The notes below the pieces were generated by a model, which searched no databases, was not told the DNA's origin, and worked only from the letters and a program-made list of their open reading frames with translations. Of a DNA stretch of 64,000 bases, positions 7,151 to 57,344 are shown piece after piece; position 1 is the first letter of the stretch; each line of letters opens with the position of its first letter. This DNA is from an uncultured virus (IMG/VR IMGVR_UViG_3300045993_000394) (Duplodnaviria > Heunggongvirae > Uroviricota > Caudoviricetes): the IMG/VR virus record IMGVR_UViG_3300045993_000394. One strand, given 5' to 3'. Position numbers and translations under genes: made by a program.

Positions 7151-10100
7151 ATGTCAGATACTGACTTCATAATTTGGGCAAGAAACAAAGCAAAAAATGC
7201 AGAGTCTGTTGCTGAATACACAGCGCGACGCACCGCAATTATACTTAATGGTGGTTCTTTAAGTGATCTAAATGAAGAAAACAACGGCATAACGCATGGT
7301 TTTATTGGTAAACTATATGCCACTACGCCGTATGGCATTCCAACATATTCTATTCCATTTACTATATTGTACAACTATACGAATAGTGGGTCCGGTGCCA
7401 TATCAATACCAGACGGCAATAGTTCACATGTTGTATATATAGACGGATATCTTGGATACGCATTTATAATACCCGATGGACTTGATTGGTCAATAACAGG
7501 TTCAACATTACAGTATGGTATGTTGTATTCTTCTGAGCCAACTGGCGTTCGCACTTCAATGTTAAATGGTGATATGAGAATATGGCAACAAGCTCTTGGT
7601 TTAACATATCAAGCATGTAGTGACGGAATATTTACTTACGATCCATCAGTGAATGTTTTTAATTTTACTGTTAGCAGCACGCAGATGGGCATATTTCAAT
7701 CGTTTTTAACAGTGAGCATTGTAAATGCCGATGGTACAACATTAGCGTCACCTTGGTCTTATGATATAGCTTCAAGCTTATCGTCAACTAATTCAAAAAG
7801 AATAAACATGTCGTTGAGATACAACGGCACACTGCCATTCGGTCCAACCTATAGATTTTTAGTTTCATTGTCTACGGACACACACCTACAAACAATACCC
7901 ATTAACATATACACACCGCAACAAGATTTTATCTATACACATTATATTGGCGCAGGTGACCCAACACATGTGGATGGCAACATTATAAACGCAGCAGGCG
8001 CAGTTGATGTGATTGGCATTAAAAACGGCAACTGGCCTAATTGTTATGCAGGCGACATAATAGAAATAATGGTTGATATATCTGCAGCTGATGGATCATA
8101 CTTAGCATATCACCAACCAACGATAACTTGCACACAAGGCGAAGGCGTGTACGCCACAACGGTTCCGAACTACGCTTATTATTTTACAAATGGCGCAAGC
8201 ACAAGAATAGAAAAACTAACCGACGTAACAACACCAGATGGCTATCAAACATTTAATGTAAACATGGTAAGCCCAACGAACACGCACCTTGATGCAATAC
8301 AGGTATATGTTCATAATGATGATTTTTCGTTGAGCACCAACAGTAGCACAATAGTTGTTGCAAATGCTGCGTCGTTGTCAACTGCGTTAACATTCCTCGT
8401 GTGGCCAACATTTCCATACAGATCAACTCCGTTACCGTCTTCTGCGTTCACTTTGACCAACGTTTCTACAGACTTTACGTTCATATACTTAACAGTAGCC
8501 ATAACTGACACAACAGGCAACCCACATGGAGACACCACAAAATTAATATCGATACAAAGTACAACTGCAACGCCAAGCGGTGGTAAGCACGACTTAGTGT
8601 TGCGTGGAACTTCAACGAGCGGTACGCACCACTGGATACACGACATAACAATACCTGTAACTATATATAGAGATTACGACTTCTCTATGAGTTGGTCTAG
8701 TGCTCATTCATTTTCATCAACTAGCACTTCTGCAACCGAAACAACTGGCGCAAAGAATTTTTACGTCGGTTATTCGTATACATTAGGGTCTATATTAACA
8801 TATTTTGGCACTAGTTCTAATACAGTAGACACGTCTTGGTCTGTATCCATTGACGACACTAACATATCCTGTGGTGCTGTTTTTACAACAGCAGAAATAC
8901 ACGATATTACAATATCCGTACCAAACACTGTAACACCTGGAAATAAGCACATTACGTGCACGGTCACATCAATAATAACCGATGCAACATATGAAATTAG
9001 CCACACGCACACATTTGACATATATATAAAAGTGTGGGGAACAAATATATCAATAACAACAGATAGGAATAGTACCGGTGTTGCCTTATCTATTCTTAAA
9101 GATACGTCTGCAACAATAAACTATACAATATCACCGCTTAATGCGGACAACTTCCCACATGCGCTGTTGCTCACAGCAACGAGCGTAGCATCGGGTGCCA
9201 GCGTTAACGGTGTAATGCACGGTACTGTTGCTTTAGATCTTGGGTATGGTGGTGCTGGTGCATATGTATATACACCATCAATAGATTATGCCACGGATGT
9301 AACAAATGCGTTTAGCAACCTAACTACGAATCCAACAACAGACATCTCAACTGGCAGTGTAGTTCTTTATGTTCCGCCCAGTGCAACTGTTGGCGCTGCA
9401 ACATTCTCATTAAACGCACTAACGAATGACGTCACAAACACAGTTGGATTTAACTACCGATCTACGATAGTTTATTATGAAGTGCGTGGAAGAGACTTCA
9501 CTGCTACACCAGATGCGACCACGATAAATATCACGGCTGGTCAGTCAATCAGTGTTTTATATACGTTTGCGCCAACAACAGTGTATGATAGCGTCCCTAC
9601 TATAACATCGTGTGCGCACACGTGGACAAGAACTTCACCGACGTCTGGTGCTGCAGCCGACACGACTGCTCCAGGTGTTTCAAATATCGGGGTCTTACTC
9701 AGCGGTAAGTATCAAATAAATATAGGCACCACAGCACACGATTCATATCACGGTGGTACTGAGTCATATACGTTTACGGCAAGCTTCAATGGCGTCACGA
9801 CCGCCACTGCTGTAACCATAAACATTTTAAATTATGATTTTAACTTAGCTTATTGGTCAGGAAGCGCCACTGGCAGCAACAAGGTTGGCAACACAACAAG
9901 TCGTGGCATATATGCTTATCCGCTTACATACGCTGCGTTTTCACCATCAAATATGGTATGGACATATACAGTAATAGATACTGGTGGTGTTACTAGATCT
10001 TCAGCTTACTCTACGTCTACATATGGATTAACTGCTGTTATAACAGATAGCGGCGTATATTCAAGCTTTTATGGTATGAGTATGGACGTAACTTCATCGG

Positions 10101-10909
10101 CATTAACACCACTTGGTACATATACATTTACAATAAATGCAGCTAACAGCTTATTTAACCATGATATAAACTTTACTTTAACTATTACTGCACGTTACGA
10201 CTTCAGTGAAGAAACACGTACGGCAGACAATACGTCCATTTATACATTACCTGGATCAATTACTCTGTATGCAAATTCAACCTATAGTTACATAATTAGA
10301 ACAAGACGCTTATATACAGACCATGCGTTTGCAATGTGGCCACGCAACGACACCACGCATATACAGATCAACGGCGATGTTAACGGTAAATTCTTCGGAT
10401 CTGAAGACCAAGACGTGACAGTGACAGTGAGCATACCGCCCACGGAAACTAGTGGTAATATATTCACTTATTGGGTACAGATGGGGCCAGCAGATTCTCT
10501 TGTAAATGCAAAACTTGGTACATATACCGGAGGCACATTTACAAATACCGCATCTCAGACTGTTAACGTGCCGTACTTGTCGTTTGATGCTCGCATAGGA
10601 ACATCTGGCGCTGCAACATCGGCATCTGGATTTGCTACCACCGGTACTCCATTTACTCCATATATAAATACAATACCATTTACTAGTGCAGCGACAAGTA
10701 ATGTTACATGGAGCGCTGGCGGGGCTGGCTTATTTGCTGTGTCATTGGATATGTCGCACTTACCAACCACAACCAACCAAGTTGGTACTGGTTACTACGT
10801 GATTGTAACAAAGAATACGTCAATCCCAGGTCCGTACGTATTTACTCTTACTGCGACAAATCAAAACAATCAATCTGTTACATTGACGTTTAACATGCTT
10901 ATAACATAG
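7151..10909 (+). CDS. Large Thr/Ser-rich virion protein with tandem Ig-like beta-sandwich repeats
   Basis: 1252 aa; recurring (Y/R)DF(S/T/N) domain starts; located in the tail module. Confidence 0.6.
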   Translation: MSDTDFIIWARNKAKNAESVAEYTARRTAIILNGGSLSDLNEENNGITHGFIGKLYATTPYGIPTYSIPFTILYNYTNSGSGAISIPDGNSSHVVYIDGYLGYAFIIPDGLDWSITGSTLQYGMLYSSEPTGVRTSMLNGDMRIWQQALGLTYQACSDGIFTYDPSVNVFNFTVSSTQMGIFQSFLTVSIVNADGTTLASPWSYDIASSLSSTNSKRINMSLRYNGTLPFGPTYRFLVSLSTDTHLQTIPINIYTPQQDFIYTHYIGAGDPTHVDGNIINAAGAVDVIGIKNGNWPNCYAGDIIEIMVDISAADGSYLAYHQPTITCTQGEGVYATTVPNYAYYFTNGASTRIEKLTDVTTPDGYQTFNVNMVSPTNTHLDAIQVYVHNDDFSLSTNSSTIVVANAASLSTALTFLVWPTFPYRSTPLPSSAFTLTNVSTDFTFIYLTVAITDTTGNPHGDTTKLISIQSTTATPSGGKHDLVLRGTSTSGTHHWIHDITIPVTIYRDYDFSMSWSSAHSFSSTSTSATETTGAKNFYVGYSYTLGSILTYFGTSSNTVDTSWSVSIDDTNISCGAVFTTAEIHDITISVPNTVTPGNKHITCTVTSIITDATYEISHTHTFDIYIKVWGTNISITTDRNSTGVALSILKDTSATINYTISPLNADNFPHALLLTATSVASGASVNGVMHGTVALDLGYGGAGAYVYTPSIDYATDVTNAFSNLTTNPTTDISTGSVVLYVPPSATVGAATFSLNALTNDVTNTVGFNYRSTIVYYEVRGRDFTATPDATTINITAGQSISVLYTFAPTTVYDSVPTITSCAHTWTRTSPTSGAAADTTAPGVSNIGVLLSGKYQINIGTTAHDSYHGGTESYTFTASFNGVTTATAVTINILNYDFNLAYWSGSATGSNKVGNTTSRGIYAYPLTYAAFSPSNMVWTYTVIDTGGVTRSSAYSTSTYGLTAVITDSGVYSSFYGMSMDVTSSALTPLGTYTFTINAANSLFNHDINFTLTITARYDFSEETRTADNTSIYTLPGSITLYANSTYSYIIRTRRLYTDHAFAMWPRNDTTHIQINGDVNGKFFGSEDQDVTVTVSIPPTETSGNIFTYWVQMGPADSLVNAKLGTYTGGTFTNTASQTVNVPYLSFDARIGTSGAATSASGFATTGTPFTPYINTIPFTSAATSNVTWSAGGAGLFAVSLDMSHLPTTTNQVGTGYYVIVTKNTSIPGPYVFTLTATNQNNQSVTLTFNMLIT

Positions 10910-32727: not shown

Positions 32728-33309
32728 CTAAATGGCGTCAATAAATTCTTTAAGCTTATTCTTGTTGATCCACTGCATGGCGTTTGATACGGCGAGAGTG
32801 GTGTCTACGTTCATGATTGTTCTGTAAGGCAGCGCGTAATACTGGATCATGGACTCAGCGGCGCTAAAAAGCTTGCGCTGTTCAGATAGACGCTGCTTGA
32901 ACTTCTCTGGTTGATCAAATTCGTCACGATTGCGAAGTGAAGCACGTTTGACTAATTCAAAGTCGTCTTGTGCGCGCACTTCATAAAATTCAAGCGGGCT
33001 GGCGTAAAATGTCTGCCTGAGCCAACGCACTTGATCGTCAAACCGTGGGAATCCATCGAGCAGGATAAGCTGTGTACCGAGGGCGTATACCCGCTCGATA
33101 CAGTAGCCGAGTTCTGCGCGCAGTTCAGTCTCACGCGGAAACAACACACCATTCTTCATGATTTCTTTATCTTCTTCTGTAATGATCTTCTTCACGATGT
33201 CCGATGTACTGATGACCGTAGTACGGTAGACATCAAGAAGTTTCTCGTGTAGTGCTTTAACAATGGTGCCTTTACCAGAGCAAGGCATACCCATGAAACA
33301 GATTATCAT
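32728..33309 (-). CDS. adk: Adenylate-kinase-family nucleoside monophosphate kinase
   Basis: GMPCSGKGT P-loop, STSD, LDGFPR. Confidence 0.85.
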   Translation of the reverse strand: MIICFMGMPCSGKGTIVKALHEKLLDVYRTTVISTSDIVKKIITEEDKEIMKNGVLFPRETELRAELGYCIERVYALGTQLILLDGFPRFDDQVRWLRQTFYASPLEFYEVRAQDDFELVKRASLRNRDEFDQPEKFKQRLSEQRKLFSAAESMIQYYALPYRTIMNVDTTLAVSNAMQWINKNKLKEFIDAI

Positions 33310-46987: not shown

Positions 46988-48376
46988 TTATCTCCTGTAA
47001 ATCCAACGAAGTTTTTCGTAACCATAGACCTTAACGTAATTAAACCGTTCTGCAAATTCAGCTTCTTTTAAATGAGCAGCGCGAGCCTTATTATATAATG
47101 CTTTCTTTGAACAAACCCATCCTGCTGCGTCTACATATTTATAGTCTGCTGATACTATTTTATCATTAATGAAATTTGTCGCTTTATATGATGAACCATA
47201 ATGGTTATATGTTTTATCTGAATATGACACTATAACATCAAATTCAACAGGTAACATTTTAATCATTCTTGATAGGCAATATGATACAAGATTCTTTATT
47301 TGATATTTTGGATGCGTGGCCATCCTGGCAAGTTCGATTGGATTCGTTGCATTTTCTATTGATTGTATAACATTTTGTCTACCAAGCGGCAAGAATTTTA
47401 GTACAGTAACAAGCTTTTCGCCTAAAAACGCACCAAAACAATGTCCGCCTGTACGTCCGTGACTAGCATAATGCCAATTGTCCAAGAAAACATCGGCGTC
47501 TTTATGATTTATTTCTTTTATTACTAAGGCAGACAAATCGTACTGAACTATTTCAATTTTTGTTATACCTGTATGGTACTTTATTAATTCAATTACCTTA
47601 TCTTCAAAACTAAACATGTGTTCCCATATAGCCAATAGCTTTAAATTTGGAAAATTGTTTTGTATATAGGATGCTTTCTTTATATCTCTATTGGCGTGGT
47701 GCGGCAACGTGTGCCAATAATCGCCTTGTATTTCAATAAGTAGGTTGTGTTCTTCTATAAAAAAATCAAATGTATATGGTCCTATTGAATGAGCTTTATG
47801 CTTAAGCCCAAGCCCAGTAAGTATGGAAGCCATTTGTTGTTCTGGTGCGGATCTGTTACCTGACTCTGCAAATCGAGCAAGTCCAGCAGCAATACGAGCT
47901 TTATAATCTTCGTCTTTAAATCGTTCTAATGCTTTTGCTCTTTGGTTTTCTAAATATTCTGGCGTGTTTTGTGCAATATGCCTAGTTAGTTTGGCTTCTT
48001 CTGTCCATGGGGCAGCAGACATCTTACTTTTGTATTCCGGATCTTTCCACCATTCCGCATTACGCTCTGAAACCAATTTGCGATGTTCTTCTGATTGAAA
48101 CATCTTTGTTATGCGCGTAATTTCATTGTCGCGATATTCTGGGTCCTGCCATGCTTCTTTAGCTTGTTTAGAACGTTGCGCTTTACCTTCTGATGAATTA
48201 GCACTGCATTTAACGCAGCGCGTTGCGCCGCTTGCTAAATAAGTACGCCAAATAATTTTACGTTCGATTCCACAACAATCGTATTTAACGAATACTGGTA
48301 ACTGTCTATACTTACATGTGTTACCTGCAGGAGTTTCATATCCAAACTCCTGCAGGTTCTTTTCTACTAGAAGCAT
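46988..48376 (-). CDS. Fusion of helical repeats, DUF559/Vsr-like nuclease and Mom-like GNAT domain (Hef-type homing endonuclease architecture)
   Basis: SAPEQQM...FDFFI...IEIQGDYWH; FLDNWHY...IELARM...VSYSD...HYGSSYKATNF; more AT-rich than flanks. Confidence 0.7.
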   Translation of the reverse strand: MLLVEKNLQEFGYETPAGNTCKYRQLPVFVKYDCCGIERKIIWRTYLASGATRCVKCSANSSEGKAQRSKQAKEAWQDPEYRDNEITRITKMFQSEEHRKLVSERNAEWWKDPEYKSKMSAAPWTEEAKLTRHIAQNTPEYLENQRAKALERFKDEDYKARIAAGLARFAESGNRSAPEQQMASILTGLGLKHKAHSIGPYTFDFFIEEHNLLIEIQGDYWHTLPHHANRDIKKASYIQNNFPNLKLLAIWEHMFSFEDKVIELIKYHTGITKIEIVQYDLSALVIKEINHKDADVFLDNWHYASHGRTGGHCFGAFLGEKLVTVLKFLPLGRQNVIQSIENATNPIELARMATHPKYQIKNLVSYCLSRMIKMLPVEFDVIVSYSDKTYNHYGSSYKATNFINDKIVSADYKYVDAAGWVCSKKALYNKARAAHLKEAEFAERFNYVKVYGYEKLRWIYRR

Positions 48377-48377
48377 T

Positions 48378-49673
48378 TTACTCTCTTACGATGAAAGCGG
48401 ATTCAGACGGCCCGGTGCTTAGGTATTTGAAAAATACTCCAGCTTCGTGCTCAAGATTCAGAATCCAGTTCTTTGATTTTTCAGATAATGAATCCCAGGC
48501 ATCCTTATTAAAATCTTCGTAGTTAATGTAGTCTATGAAGGATAACATCATTTCGTCTGGACGGTTAATTGAAATAGCTCGCTTAAACGACGGGATGTGG
48601 AATTCAGACACCCGGCGTTGGCGTTTGGTCGCAGTCGTAATCTCGCGCAGTTCCTTCTTGGCGTTGTTATGGAGCCACTGTGCAAGTTGGTCGTTTGTCA
48701 TGTCTGGCGCAAGGCTATAGTGATATTTTGTTACTTCTTCCCACGTAAGTTCACGACCACCCATCGCACCGGACGCACCGGCCACTCGGATTGGGAACGT
48801 GCGCGTAACACCATAAATCTTATTGCATGTAGCTGGCGACAGGCCAGCTTCCATGAACCAGTTCGACGCGTTCGTGTCACGTGAAGTAGTCTTTGGCCAC
48901 GGACCGTGATGCACGGATAGTGGACTGCCCTGGGTGCCTTCGAGAATGATGCGTTTACCTTCGTCATTTGCTGAGTTCAGCAACTCAACGGTGTCGCACA
49001 TGTACTCGGCTAGATCTGCGTCTTCTTTTGCCAGCTTAACACGCGGTACCTTAGCACCAGATGGATCGCGCAGCATGCCAGCAAATTCACCATCAGCGGT
49101 AATTCTAGCAAGTTTGCGAATGAGGTTATAACCAGATCCATGAGTAGTGGACCCAAGCGACTTGTGTAGTGAGTCTGCAGGATATGCCTCACATCCCATG
49201 CAACCACCGGCTGGCTTCTCTGCGCCAAACTTGCCCTTTGTGCCGTTATGAAACTGACACGTGGTCGGGGCATACCACTCTGGGCCACAAATATCGGCCC
49301 AGCCATTTTCGGCTCGCACGTCCACAGCGTCAATGATGGTAGCATTGGGGTCGATACGTAGACGCGGTTTACCATCAATGAACCATGCATTGCGATCCTT
49401 GAGCCAGCCGATCTCACGGTTGAGGTAGTACTTGTCGATCTGCGCACCGGCACCGAGCACAATCGGTGCCTTTGGGTTATGCAATCCAATACATGTAAGC
49501 TGGTGCCACGGCAGACCTTCGCCATTTATGTAAGTCGTGTGGGCCGCATTCACGGACCCAGTGCGAACCAAGATATCCCACGGCTTACGCATAGCTAACG
49601 AGCTAAGTAACTTGCCTTTGGCCTCGCTGCCAAACGAAAGCCCAACCAGCACATCAACATTCTTAGCTACCAT
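48378..49673 (-). CDS. purZ: Adenylosuccinate-synthetase homologue with PurZ/PurZ0 signatures
   Basis: GSEAKGK (Ser in place of catalytic Asp), NAAHT, EGTQG, RTFPIRVAG, EITTATKRQRR, SFID; ATG at 49673 with AAGGAG RBS. Confidence 0.75.
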   Translation of the reverse strand: MVAKNVDVLVGLSFGSEAKGKLLSSLAMRKPWDILVRTGSVNAAHTTYINGEGLPWHQLTCIGLHNPKAPIVLGAGAQIDKYYLNREIGWLKDRNAWFIDGKPRLRIDPNATIIDAVDVRAENGWADICGPEWYAPTTCQFHNGTKGKFGAEKPAGGCMGCEAYPADSLHKSLGSTTHGSGYNLIRKLARITADGEFAGMLRDPSGAKVPRVKLAKEDADLAEYMCDTVELLNSANDEGKRIILEGTQGSPLSVHHGPWPKTTSRDTNASNWFMEAGLSPATCNKIYGVTRTFPIRVAGASGAMGGRELTWEEVTKYHYSLAPDMTNDQLAQWLHNNAKKELREITTATKRQRRVSEFHIPSFKRAISINRPDEMMLSFIDYINYEDFNKDAWDSLSEKSKNWILNLEHEAGVFFKYLSTGPSESAFIVRE

Positions 49674-49974
49674 TTTGTTCTCCTTCATTGTCTTTGAGCA
49701 GCTTGAAAAACGCATCGATTGATGCTACAGACGGTATTTCATTAATTCTCAACACCAACTTGTTTTTTATGTCTTTATGTACGATTACGAATGTTGGCGT
49801 GTACACTATTCTAAATTTCGACAGCAATGCTAATTCAGACATCTCTGATGTAAAGAAATTTATTACAGTCGTCTTAATACCAAGTACTTCATCAATTCTG
49901 TCTGATAATATGTGCATTTCGCGTATGTCTACCTTAGACAACGCCATAAAATTTAAAAACAAATAGGCTATCAT
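49663..49974 (-). CDS. Thioredoxin-fold-like protein lacking cysteines
   Basis: KFRIVYTPTFVIV cis-Pro-loop-like motif; 103 aa; follows the RNR. Confidence 0.5.
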   Translation of the reverse strand: MIAYLFLNFMALSKVDIREMHILSDRIDEVLGIKTTVINFFTSEMSELALLSKFRIVYTPTFVIVHKDIKNKLVLRINEIPSVASIDAFFKLLKDNEGEQNGS

Positions 49975-56627: not shown

Positions 56628-57344
56628 TCATTCTTTGTGTGGACAAATTCCATTATTCTGCGCTCTACCAGAATTGCAATTCCAACACAAAATACGTATG
56701 GTACTTGGGAAATTGTTTTTTATTATCCATTTTAAAAAATCATTTCCCTTTAGTCTTTTACCATTTACTTTACTATCGTTATTAACGTGATCAAATGTTA
56801 GAAACTTAATGTGAAATATGCCACAACATTCACATTTATTGCCATATTTATCTAAACAAGTTTGCTTTAGCCGTTTTCTTGCTTCTTTCTGTAGATTTGA
56901 ATATTTATTCCTGCATTCGTCACACGCAAAAAACAATCTTGATTTAAGCTTGGACCCACATTGTCTACAGCATCCAGCCTTTTTTCTCTTATTAACTACT
57001 TTAATTGTTGCCTGCGTATAGAGTTTTGAACACCTTGTGCAGCATGTCTTTCCGTGTGCCGCTTTATTTGAACATCTAGCACACATTCCGTTTTCTTTCT
57101 TTTTGTTTATATAGTCTTTATGTGATTTTACTAATCTATCTGAGTTTGCTTTGTGATGAATTTTAGCTTGCGCATTGTGAAGCACTGCACACTGTTCACA
57201 GCGCGTTTTCCCATTTGCTGCTTTATTGTCACATTTTACACATATTCCATTCTTTATTTTTGATTTTCTTTTATTTTTATGCCATAAAGCCACTTTTTGT
57301 TTATTGGCTTCATACCAACGCTTATTATATTCTATAGTGGACAT
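56628..57344 (-). CDS. HNH homing endonuclease with three Cys-rich repeats
   Basis: G.CxxC......GKT.CxxC repeats; CECCG...LTFDHV...ILCWNCN; strongly AT-rich. Confidence 0.8.
   Translation of the reverse strand: MSTIEYNKRWYEANKQKVALWHKNKRKSKIKNGICVKCDNKAANGKTRCEQCAVLHNAQAKIHHKANSDRLVKSHKDYINKKKENGMCARCSNKAAHGKTCCTRCSKLYTQATIKVVNKRKKAGCCRQCGSKLKSRLFFACDECRNKYSNLQKEARKRLKQTCLDKYGNKCECCGIFHIKFLTFDHVNNDSKVNGKRLKGNDFLKWIIKNNFPSTIRILCWNCNSGRAQNNGICPHKE

Follow-up and report, generated by a model that had tools for sequence, protein, structure and literature searches.

A Ser-type adenylosuccinate synthetase homologue of a large uncultured phage lies in a clade separate from PurZ, PurZ0 and canonical PurA

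To our knowledge, the proven 2-aminoadenine (Z) genomes are those of small sipho- and podophages with a PolA-type DpoZ or a PrimPol. According to the accessible text of PMC12884076, PurZ and PurZ0, the only characterised homologues of the adenylosuccinate synthetase (AdSS) PurA that carry Ser at the place of its catalytic Asp13, serve full Z genomes, and DmtZ and Dut form the helper set of the PurZ0 phages. DmtZ is described there with a Tyr/Asn/Glu triad, an adenine-reading Asp and a water-excluding Pro57, and nucleoside deoxyribosyltransferase (NDT)-family genes are linked to deoxy-Z (dZ) phages in this source as well as elsewhere in the literature. Since predicted PurZ homologues are numerous in viromes (the accessible part of PMC13128860 counts more than 2000 viruses for which PurZ homology predicts Z, with proof lacking for most), the bare presence of a purZ-like gene is not new. 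Here, we analysed such a gene in a stretch of 64,000 nucleotides (the window), which makes up about half of the 125.7-kb contig of the uncultured Caudoviricetes virus IMGVR_UViG_3300045993_000394. The gene had been predicted from its letters to encode a PurZ0-like synthetase; the comparisons below revealed that its product is not a canonical PurA and belongs to a clade of its own, being a member of neither PurZ0 nor PurZ.

The minus-strand open reading frame (ORF) ending at position 48378 of the window offers three candidate starts, at 49715, 49688 (the 436-aa database call) and 49673. The ORFs beginning at 49688 and 49715 run across an AAGGAG site, and because this site precedes the ATG at 49673 with a 6-nt spacer, the 431-aa product of the shortest ORF, which had also been chosen in the original prediction, is the best call. 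The translation of window:48381-49673(-) has the N-terminus MVAKNVDVLVGLSFGSEAKGK. Residues were mapped on a MAFFT alignment of 25 sequences including E. coli PurA. The P-loop reads FGSEAKGK, in which Ser16 stands at the position of Asp13 of PurA and Phe14 is located two residues ahead of it; the aspartate loop reads E344-I-T-T-A-T-K-R-Q-R-R354, where Thr346 is aligned to Gly298, and the nucleotide box reads S378-F-I-D381 (within LSFID), where Phe379 replaces Lys331 and Asp381 retains Asp333. All three motifs with these substitutions, down to the Ser codon, had been read by eye before, and the translation and the alignment bore them out. Thr301, Arg303, Arg305 and the S414-T-G-P motif of PurA correspond to Thr349, Arg351, Arg353 and S419-T-G-P, and Asn38, His41 and Gln224 are likewise kept. 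The accessible text of bioRxiv 10.1101/2025.10.22.683976 names 12 positions that show differential conservation or lie close to the catalytic site, and at seven of them the protein shares the state of PurZ; in phiVC8 numbering, Phe12, Ser14, Pro233, Trp252, Thr262, Phe295 and Tyr298 are common to both.

These motifs are neither chance nor sequencing error: the protein matches Pfam PF00709 (E 4.3e-35, 121.7 bits) and all of the 32 aligned clade relatives are invariant at G15, S16, E17, K19, G20, T346, T349, R351, R353, R354, F379 and D381. Over these 32 relatives, which are 40-62% identical to the window protein, 59 positions are invariant, and these include the entire P-loop along with His45, Gln248 and the aspartate loop rich in Arg. 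PHROGs assigned the protein to phrog_1211, '2-aminooxy adenylosuccinate synthetase' (1.1e-52). No DNA-level relative was found by megablast among 50,697 phage records, the nearest isolate-phage protein was the PurZ of phiVC8 (28.3% identity, tblastn), and the metagenome relatives of 40-62% identity lay on contigs whose length reached 186 kb. With a threshold of E < 1e-3, the full HMMER scan recovered 3278 representatives, of which 181 had E < 1e-30. The Asp13 position was Ser in 235, Gly in three and Asp in none of the 264 proteins gathered from two large searches, the other 26 having no readable P-loop. Among solved structures, the best sequence match was phiVC8 PurZ (6FM1, 2.1e-32), followed by the short PurA of P. 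horikoshii (4.2e-30), PurZ0 (7VF6, 7e-17), E. coli PurA (2e-15) and S-2L PurZ (5.5e-15). The AlphaFold2 (AF2) model, built from 32 sequences, had a predicted local distance difference test (pLDDT) value of 89.1 and a predicted template modelling (pTM) score of 0.88. Foldseek matched the model to 35+ AdSS chains with a probability of 1.00 and gave template modelling (TM) scores of 0.91 to 5K7X, 0.84 to 6TNH/6FM1 and 0.80 to 7VF6.

Trees were computed from 57 rows and 349 columns, one by a quick LG+C20 posterior mean site frequency (PMSF) run and one under LG+F+G4, with 1000 ultrafast bootstraps (UFBoot) and the Shimodaira-Hasegawa-like approximate likelihood ratio test (SH-aLRT). In both trees, a 100/100 branch parted the Asp-type enzymes (the long bacterial PurA and the short archaeal ones) from all Ser/Gly-type proteins including that of the window, and because of this branch the window protein does not cluster inside canonical PurA, in agreement with the original prediction. 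PurZ (phiVC8, ZP6, JeffCo and Bm1) and PurZ0 (Ghobes, Wayne and Spocter) each formed a 100% clade with the window protein outside, while the latter was one of the nine rows of a third clade, which was also supported at 100% and derives from 113-184-kb phage contigs. The backbone among the three clades was weakly supported, and in the PMSF tree the window clade and PurZ shared one weakly supported subgroup (SH-aLRT 89). The approximately unbiased (AU) test, carried out under LG+F+G4 with 10,000 replicates of resampled estimated log-likelihoods (RELL), rejected an exclusive grouping of the window clade with PurZ0 (delta lnL 58.2, p-AU 0.023), whereas an exclusive grouping with PurZ survived (delta lnL 30.8, p-AU 0.173). 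The assignment to the PurZ0 subgroup, which had been made from the retained Asp, was thus not upheld. In the PMSF tree, PurZ and PurZ0, both characterised and using 2'-deoxyguanosine monophosphate (dGMP), lie in different subgroups of the Ser/Gly group and therefore their common ancestor brackets the window clade; this bracketing is the strongest argument for the predicted dGMP chemistry of the clade. No description of the lineage was found in the literature searched; Tong et al. (2023) and the supplements of PMC12884076 and of bioRxiv 10.1101/2025.10.22.683976 may contain it.

Two further observations on phage-borne relatives were made along with the trees. Flavobacterium phage MaF61 (L085, 167.8 kb) encodes at 8968-10311, between its scaffold and terminase genes, a 447-aa PurZ-type protein with the motifs GSSGKG, TTLTK and MNFVNY and a long unique insert, on which the paper describing MaF61 is silent. 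It grouped with PurZ on a long branch (SH-aLRT 99) in the first tree, and later trees were built without MaF61. Literature searches on MaF61, on PurZ in large or jumbo phages and on the bacterial operon discussed below returned nothing relevant. The other observation concerns a 183,765-bp scaffold of a Candidatus Paceibacterota metagenome-assembled genome (MAG; L004) and an IMG/VR viral contig (L106), which have the same size and the same purZ-like coordinates (175363-176667). The viral contig has direct terminal repeats, and the phage genes of the pair include SbcCD, a LAGLIDADG endonuclease and the purZ-like gene; the scaffold probably belongs to a phage and was assigned to a bacterial MAG during binning.

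Judged by its sequence, the window protein appears closest to PurZ0 in the P-loop, the retained Asp and the helper genes, and closest to PurZ in overall similarity. With the PurZ0 enzymes of Gordonia phages Archimedes (PDB 7VF6) and Ghobes and of Arthrobacter phage Wayne it shares the FGSEAKG P-loop, the TT(V/A)T aspartate loop, the Asp at the Asp333 position (LSFAD in Ghobes, LSFID in the window) and the presence of DmtZ-like and Dut genes in the genome. However, its identity to them is only 24-27% (tblastn), it lies outside their clade, its 431 aa with a four-Cys insert and a second insert exceed their 363-379 aa, and it retains Tyr382 and the S-T-G-P motif. Moreover, the replicase of the window is DnaE-like and not a DpoZ-1 type PolA, and the contig measures 125.7 kb or more, in contrast to the 43-45-kb siphophages carrying PurZ0. 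PurZ, or DgsS (Vibrio phage phiVC8, 6FM1/6TNH; cyanophage S-2L, 7ODX), is the best sequence match among both structures and isolate phages and has the same Ser for Asp13, Thr for Gly298 and Phe two residues before Ser, but it differs in the P-loop (GSTGKG vs GSEAKG), at Asp381 (Asn297 in PurZ) and in the S-T-G-P motif (G-F/Y-G-P in PurZ). No DatZ or MazZ neighbours like those of PurZ were found in the window, and PurZ is bound to ATP or dATP according to PDB titles, whereas the window protein looks GTP-type. The short PurA of P. horikoshii (5K7X/2D7U) is the best fold match and the second-best sequence match; the short Asp-type enzymes L070 and L080 have the GTP-type Asp and S/T-G-P as in the window protein but, unlike it, display GDEGKG, AAGTGR and LTKLD motifs and group with canonical PurA.

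The nucleotide box is, by its residues, a hybrid that joins the stacking Phe/Tyr of PurZ with the guanine-reading Asp of PurA, and it represents a natural experiment on the choice of the phosphate donor. Since the protein retains both Asp381 and S-T-G-P, which we take to be the counterparts of the residues that read guanine in PurA, we predict, with low certainty, that GTP is its donor. Tong and co-workers reportedly described PurZ0 as using GTP. The accessible text of PMC12884076 gives the preferences of PurZ0 and PurZ as 'ATP and GTP, respectively', an order that we take as swapped, given the PDB titles mentioned above and the GTP use reported for PurZ0. Phe379 and Tyr382 match the PurZ residues that stack on the ATP adenine according to the accessible part of bioRxiv 10.1101/2025.10.22.683976. 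The protein is further distinguished by the insert of about 46 aa that is absent from PurZ, PurZ0 and PurA in the alignment. Cys129, Cys139, Cys158 and Cys161 are invariant and His142 is near-invariant in it over the 32 aligned members, and the region has pLDDT values of 71-82 in the AF2 model. With its four conserved Cys, the insert adds a structural element that is new to the AdSS enzyme family and, from its residue pattern, is a probable Zn-binding module.

The analysis shows that the protein is a homologue of AdSS with the AdSS fold and the signature residues, that it belongs to a clade of its own, that its gene lies in conserved synteny and that a cassette of candidate helper genes is present; the substrate, the donor, the roles of the helper proteins and any Z in virion DNA are predictions. 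On balance, we lean towards the view that the clade is a third PurZ lineage, which makes N6-succino-2-amino-2'-deoxyadenylate (dSMP) from dGMP, probably with GTP. The window enzyme would phosphorylate O6 of dGMP, L-aspartate would displace the phosphate, and the host PurB would release the Z monophosphate (dZMP) from dSMP. The phage adenylate-kinase-like kinase, together with the nucleoside diphosphate kinase (NDK) of the host, would then raise dZMP to dZTP, which the DnaE-like replicase would put opposite T. The DmtZ-like and Dut proteins might lower dATP/dAMP and supply dGMP, and such a control of pools would be the strategy of the PurZ0 phages and not the DatZ/MazZ strategy of the PurZ phages.

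The cassette lies about 16 kb from the purZ-like gene in a five-gene run on the same strand, which consists of genes for a dCMP deaminase, a small ORF, the kinase, the NDT-fold protein and Dut. As in the DmtZ-DutZ module of PMC12884076 (accessible text), the NDT-fold gene is directly upstream of Dut, but the two genes of the window are separate instead of fused, a kinase gene comes first, and the cassette is remote from the purZ-like gene. The DmtZ-like protein matched the DmtZ half of the Wayne fusion (BLASTP 5e-10), and Tyr6, Asp12, Asn77 and Glu103 of Ghobes DmtZ, invariant in a five-sequence alignment, correspond to its Y5, D11, N64 and E90; the position of Pro57 is occupied by Ala, and by Pro in two relatives. 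By tblastn, the protein found only six of the 50,697 phage records, five of Arthrobacter phages and one of a Bacillus phage. The five Arthrobacter matches lie inside a gene annotated as dUTPase, as in Wayne, and a PF00709 gene in the same phage was confirmed for Litotes only; Bacillus phage vB_BpsS-140 also carries a PF00709 gene. The kinase-NDT-Dut order recurs in two related phage records (G008 and G010), and an NDT-x-Dut order in a third (G006). The Dut protein is 33% identical to the DutZ half of Wayne and as similar to ordinary dUTPases of 1168 phage records, which is why it carries no weight alone; it may be a DutZ or an ordinary dUTPase, which similarity does not separate.

Several results weigh against the synthesis of dSMP for a Z genome. 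The PurZ model NF038379 gave 148.2 bits against a cut-off of 300, and the highest NCBIfam score of the protein was obtained with the short-PurA model NF003295, 181.7 bits against a cut-off of 368; the PurA model TIGR00184 gave 130.7 bits (cut-off 395.55), so that all curated NCBIfam cut-offs lie above its scores. Four of the 12 positions from the accessible text of bioRxiv 10.1101/2025.10.22.683976 are unlike PurZ. No DatZ-type HD domain, MazG, DUF550 or DUF5664 was detected in the 64-kb window, and in five relatives HD_3 was found in none and MazG in one with 17.5 bits, below the cut-off. The NDT-like gene occurs in three of eight related phage records and was not found in G007, G009, G011, G012 and MaF61, and the phage needs an ordinary dUTPase anyway for its ThyX and dCMP-deaminase route. 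Finally, Ser-type homologues are widespread in bacterial chromosomes and occur also in archaea (a Methanosarcinales MAG), and in two of five genomes checked the Ser-type gene is the sole PF00709 gene, therefore Ser may fit other substrates.

The cellular homologues were examined at 80 loci (L004-L083), which had been retrieved with clade-derived patterns in a search biased towards relatives of the query, and the Asp13 position was Ser in 68, Gly in two and Asp in two of them, eight being unreadable or fused. At seven of the 11 loci inspected (L066, L069, L048, L056, L022, L083 and L057), the PurA-like gene is preceded by a gene for a protein of about 680 aa composed of RNase_H_2, DUF429 and an AAA_18 kinase, and it is followed by a DCD-like (dCTP-deaminase/Dut-fold) gene in five of these seven and by a deoxynucleoside kinase (dNK) gene in two, in the order PurA-like, DCD-like, dNK. 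In the 3-kb flanks of the 80 loci, tblastn detected the DCD-like gene at 49 loci and the exonuclease-kinase protein at 31, with 30 loci having both, and dNK at 16. Since Ser-type homologues are common in bacterial operons, the Ser/Thr signature alone is no proof of Z chemistry and no stand-alone sign of phage Z synthesis, and it should be read as a 'PurZ-like pocket', not as proof of Z-DNA. The original prediction is thus supported in part: the Ser/Thr/Phe residues, the retained Asp, the place on the Ser-type side of the 100/100 branch and the DmtZ-like and Dut genes in the window agree with it, while its premise that Ser/Thr marks phage Z synthesis is weakened by the 68 of 80 cellular relatives with Ser.

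These operons speak in favour of a different, rather unlikely reading, in which the Ser-type enzyme makes a 2-aminopurine or other modified purine nucleotide without bulk replacement of A by Z. Its purpose could then be a partial or transient substitution, the reshaping of nucleotide pools or the countering of host defence, possibly in parallel with the bacterial operons, and three isolates with the operon also have a canonical PurA. The missing DatZ and MazZ and the DnaE-like replicase in place of a Z-selective PolA fit this reading as well. On the other hand, the only characterised Ser-type enzymes serve full Z genomes in the source cited at the outset, the purZ-like gene belongs to the core replication/nucleotide module of every relative examined, and PADLOC gave no match for the bacterial or phage Ser-type proteins and has no model for the cellular ones. 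Improbable, and clearly more so, is an auxiliary AdSS that would convert IMP, Asp and GTP to adenylosuccinate and boost the adenine supply, with Ser replacing the role of Asp13. The residues kept as in PurA (Asp381, S-T-G-P, N42, H45, Q248, R351 and R353), the best fold match, the highest NCBIfam score and the two small genomes with only a Ser-type PF00709 gene speak for it. Nevertheless, Asp13, which is essential and 99% conserved in the canonical group according to the accessible text of PMC12884076, is lost in all of the 32 clade members, Gly298 and Lys331 are changed to Thr and Phe, the 100/100 branch separates the protein from every Asp-type enzyme, and the scores stay under the PurA equivalog cut-offs. 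A catalytically dead structural or regulatory relic of a PurA-like gene, as the loss of the catalytic Asp, the large insert and the 28% identity to the nearest isolate-phage protein could suggest, is very improbable in view of the 59 invariant positions with P-loop, His45, Gln248 and aspartate loop among them, the confident predicted fold and the good ribosome-binding site.

If the window clade is an active third PurZ lineage, Z-DNA would occur also in large phages whose replicase is of family C and which lack DatZ and MazZ, and the need for a Z-selective polymerase and a dATPase could be tested on them. A wider proposal, conceivable but doubtful, is that this GTP-type lineage with a putative Zn-ribbon insert gives phages of 110-185 kb with DnaE-like replicases a 2-aminoadenine genome through kinase, DmtZ and Dut, without DatZ, MazZ or DpoZ, and that the product of the cellular operons is this 2-aminopurine deoxynucleotide or one related to it. 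Z chemistry would then not be confined to phages, and the phage pathway may have arisen from the cellular operon, or the operon may act in defence.

The arrangement of the cellular operon parallels the PurZ0 + DutZ pair of phages. Fusions of 500-570 aa, for example in Cellulomonas hominis, where the next gene is DUF7002, join an N-terminal AAA_17/18/33 kinase to a Ser-type PurA-like domain, and these proteins (L027, L034, L068; P0099, P0105, P0115, P0135 and others) form a clade of their own (SH-aLRT 99, UFBoot 100). A Ser-type protein of 335-338 aa (L006 and L005) is the sole PF00709 match in two small genomes (G004 and G005), one of Saccharibacteria with 0.6 Mb and the other a MAG of 2.2 Mb, and may be their housekeeping enzyme despite its Ser; a search for ADSL_C found no match in either small genome, nor in the E. 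coli control. Of these two proteins, L006 scores above the cut-off of the short-PurA NCBIfam model (371.8 vs 368), and its gene has a Ham1 (ITPase) gene as neighbour.

Table 1. Positions of the purZ-like gene, its signature codons, the candidate helper genes and other features in the window
Feature	Position	Strand	Basis or remark
PurZ-like (Ser-type) AdSS homologue, 431 aa + stop	48378..49673	-	PF00709 match, AF2 fold
Shine-Dalgarno AAGGAG	49680..49685	-	6 nt 5' of ATG at 49673; read from sequence
Ser16 codon AGC, at catalytic Asp13 position of PurA	49626..49628	-	sequence and alignment
Thr346 codon (E. coli Gly298; phiVC8 PurZ Thr262)	48636..48638	-	alignment
Asp381 codon (E. coli Asp333, guanine-recognising Asp; Asn in PurZ)	48531..48533	-	alignment
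Insert of ~46 aa, residues ~123-168	49170..49307	-	alignment; absent from PurZ, PurZ0, PurA
Adenylate-kinase-like nucleoside monophosphate kinase, first of kinase-NDT-Dut	32728..33309	-	Pfam ADK 5.2e-9; NCBIfam adk subfamily 3e-11, below cut-off
DmtZ-like NDT-fold protein, 159 aa	32240..32719	-	Pfam Nuc_deoxyrib_tr 27.0 bits vs 28.8 cut-off
Dut-family dNTP pyrophosphatase, N-terminal extension ~77 aa	31615..32271	-	Pfam dUTPase 4.2e-24
RecA/UvsX-like, 816 aa	42291-44741	-	vs 350-430 aa in relatives, ~400 aa extra
Ribonucleotide reductase, 1050 aa	49981-53133	-	vs 765 aa in relatives, ~290 aa extra
HNH-type gene	56628-57344		
462-aa protein adjoining purZ-like gene downstream	46988-48376	-	C-terminal Pfam Mom 5e-17, weak Vsr-like nuclease match
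Replicative polymerase, 1175 aa	25141-28668	-	31-35% identity over 85-92% length to phage DnaE-like Pol III alpha

In the window, the purZ-like gene is flanked by the genes of a ribonucleotide reductase and a RecA/UvsX-like protein (Table 1). The order ribonucleotide reductase, purZ-like, ExoX_C-motif protein and RecA was found in two relatives (L105 and L107), and the part from purZ-like to RecA is kept in two others (L109 and L128); because this order recurs, the purZ-like gene is regarded as a stable part of the replication/nucleotide module. An assignment of the replicative polymerase to family B, made from a generic PHROG name, was rejected since homology places it with DnaE-like enzymes and in neither family A nor B. 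The Mom-like protein encoded directly downstream of the purZ-like gene was considered as a partner in adenine/Z hypermodification and rejected, as its family is annotated as Hef-like homing endonucleases, of which Campylobacter phages have two to five copies. Homologues of this gene occur at two other sites in one relative (G006) and are absent from four of the five relatives, the relatives having no gene of this type beside the purZ-like gene, and it looks like a mobile insertion. The RecA/UvsX-like protein and the ribonucleotide reductase both probably carry inteins, because they exceed the size of their relatives and their extra parts gave endonuclease-type PHROG hits.

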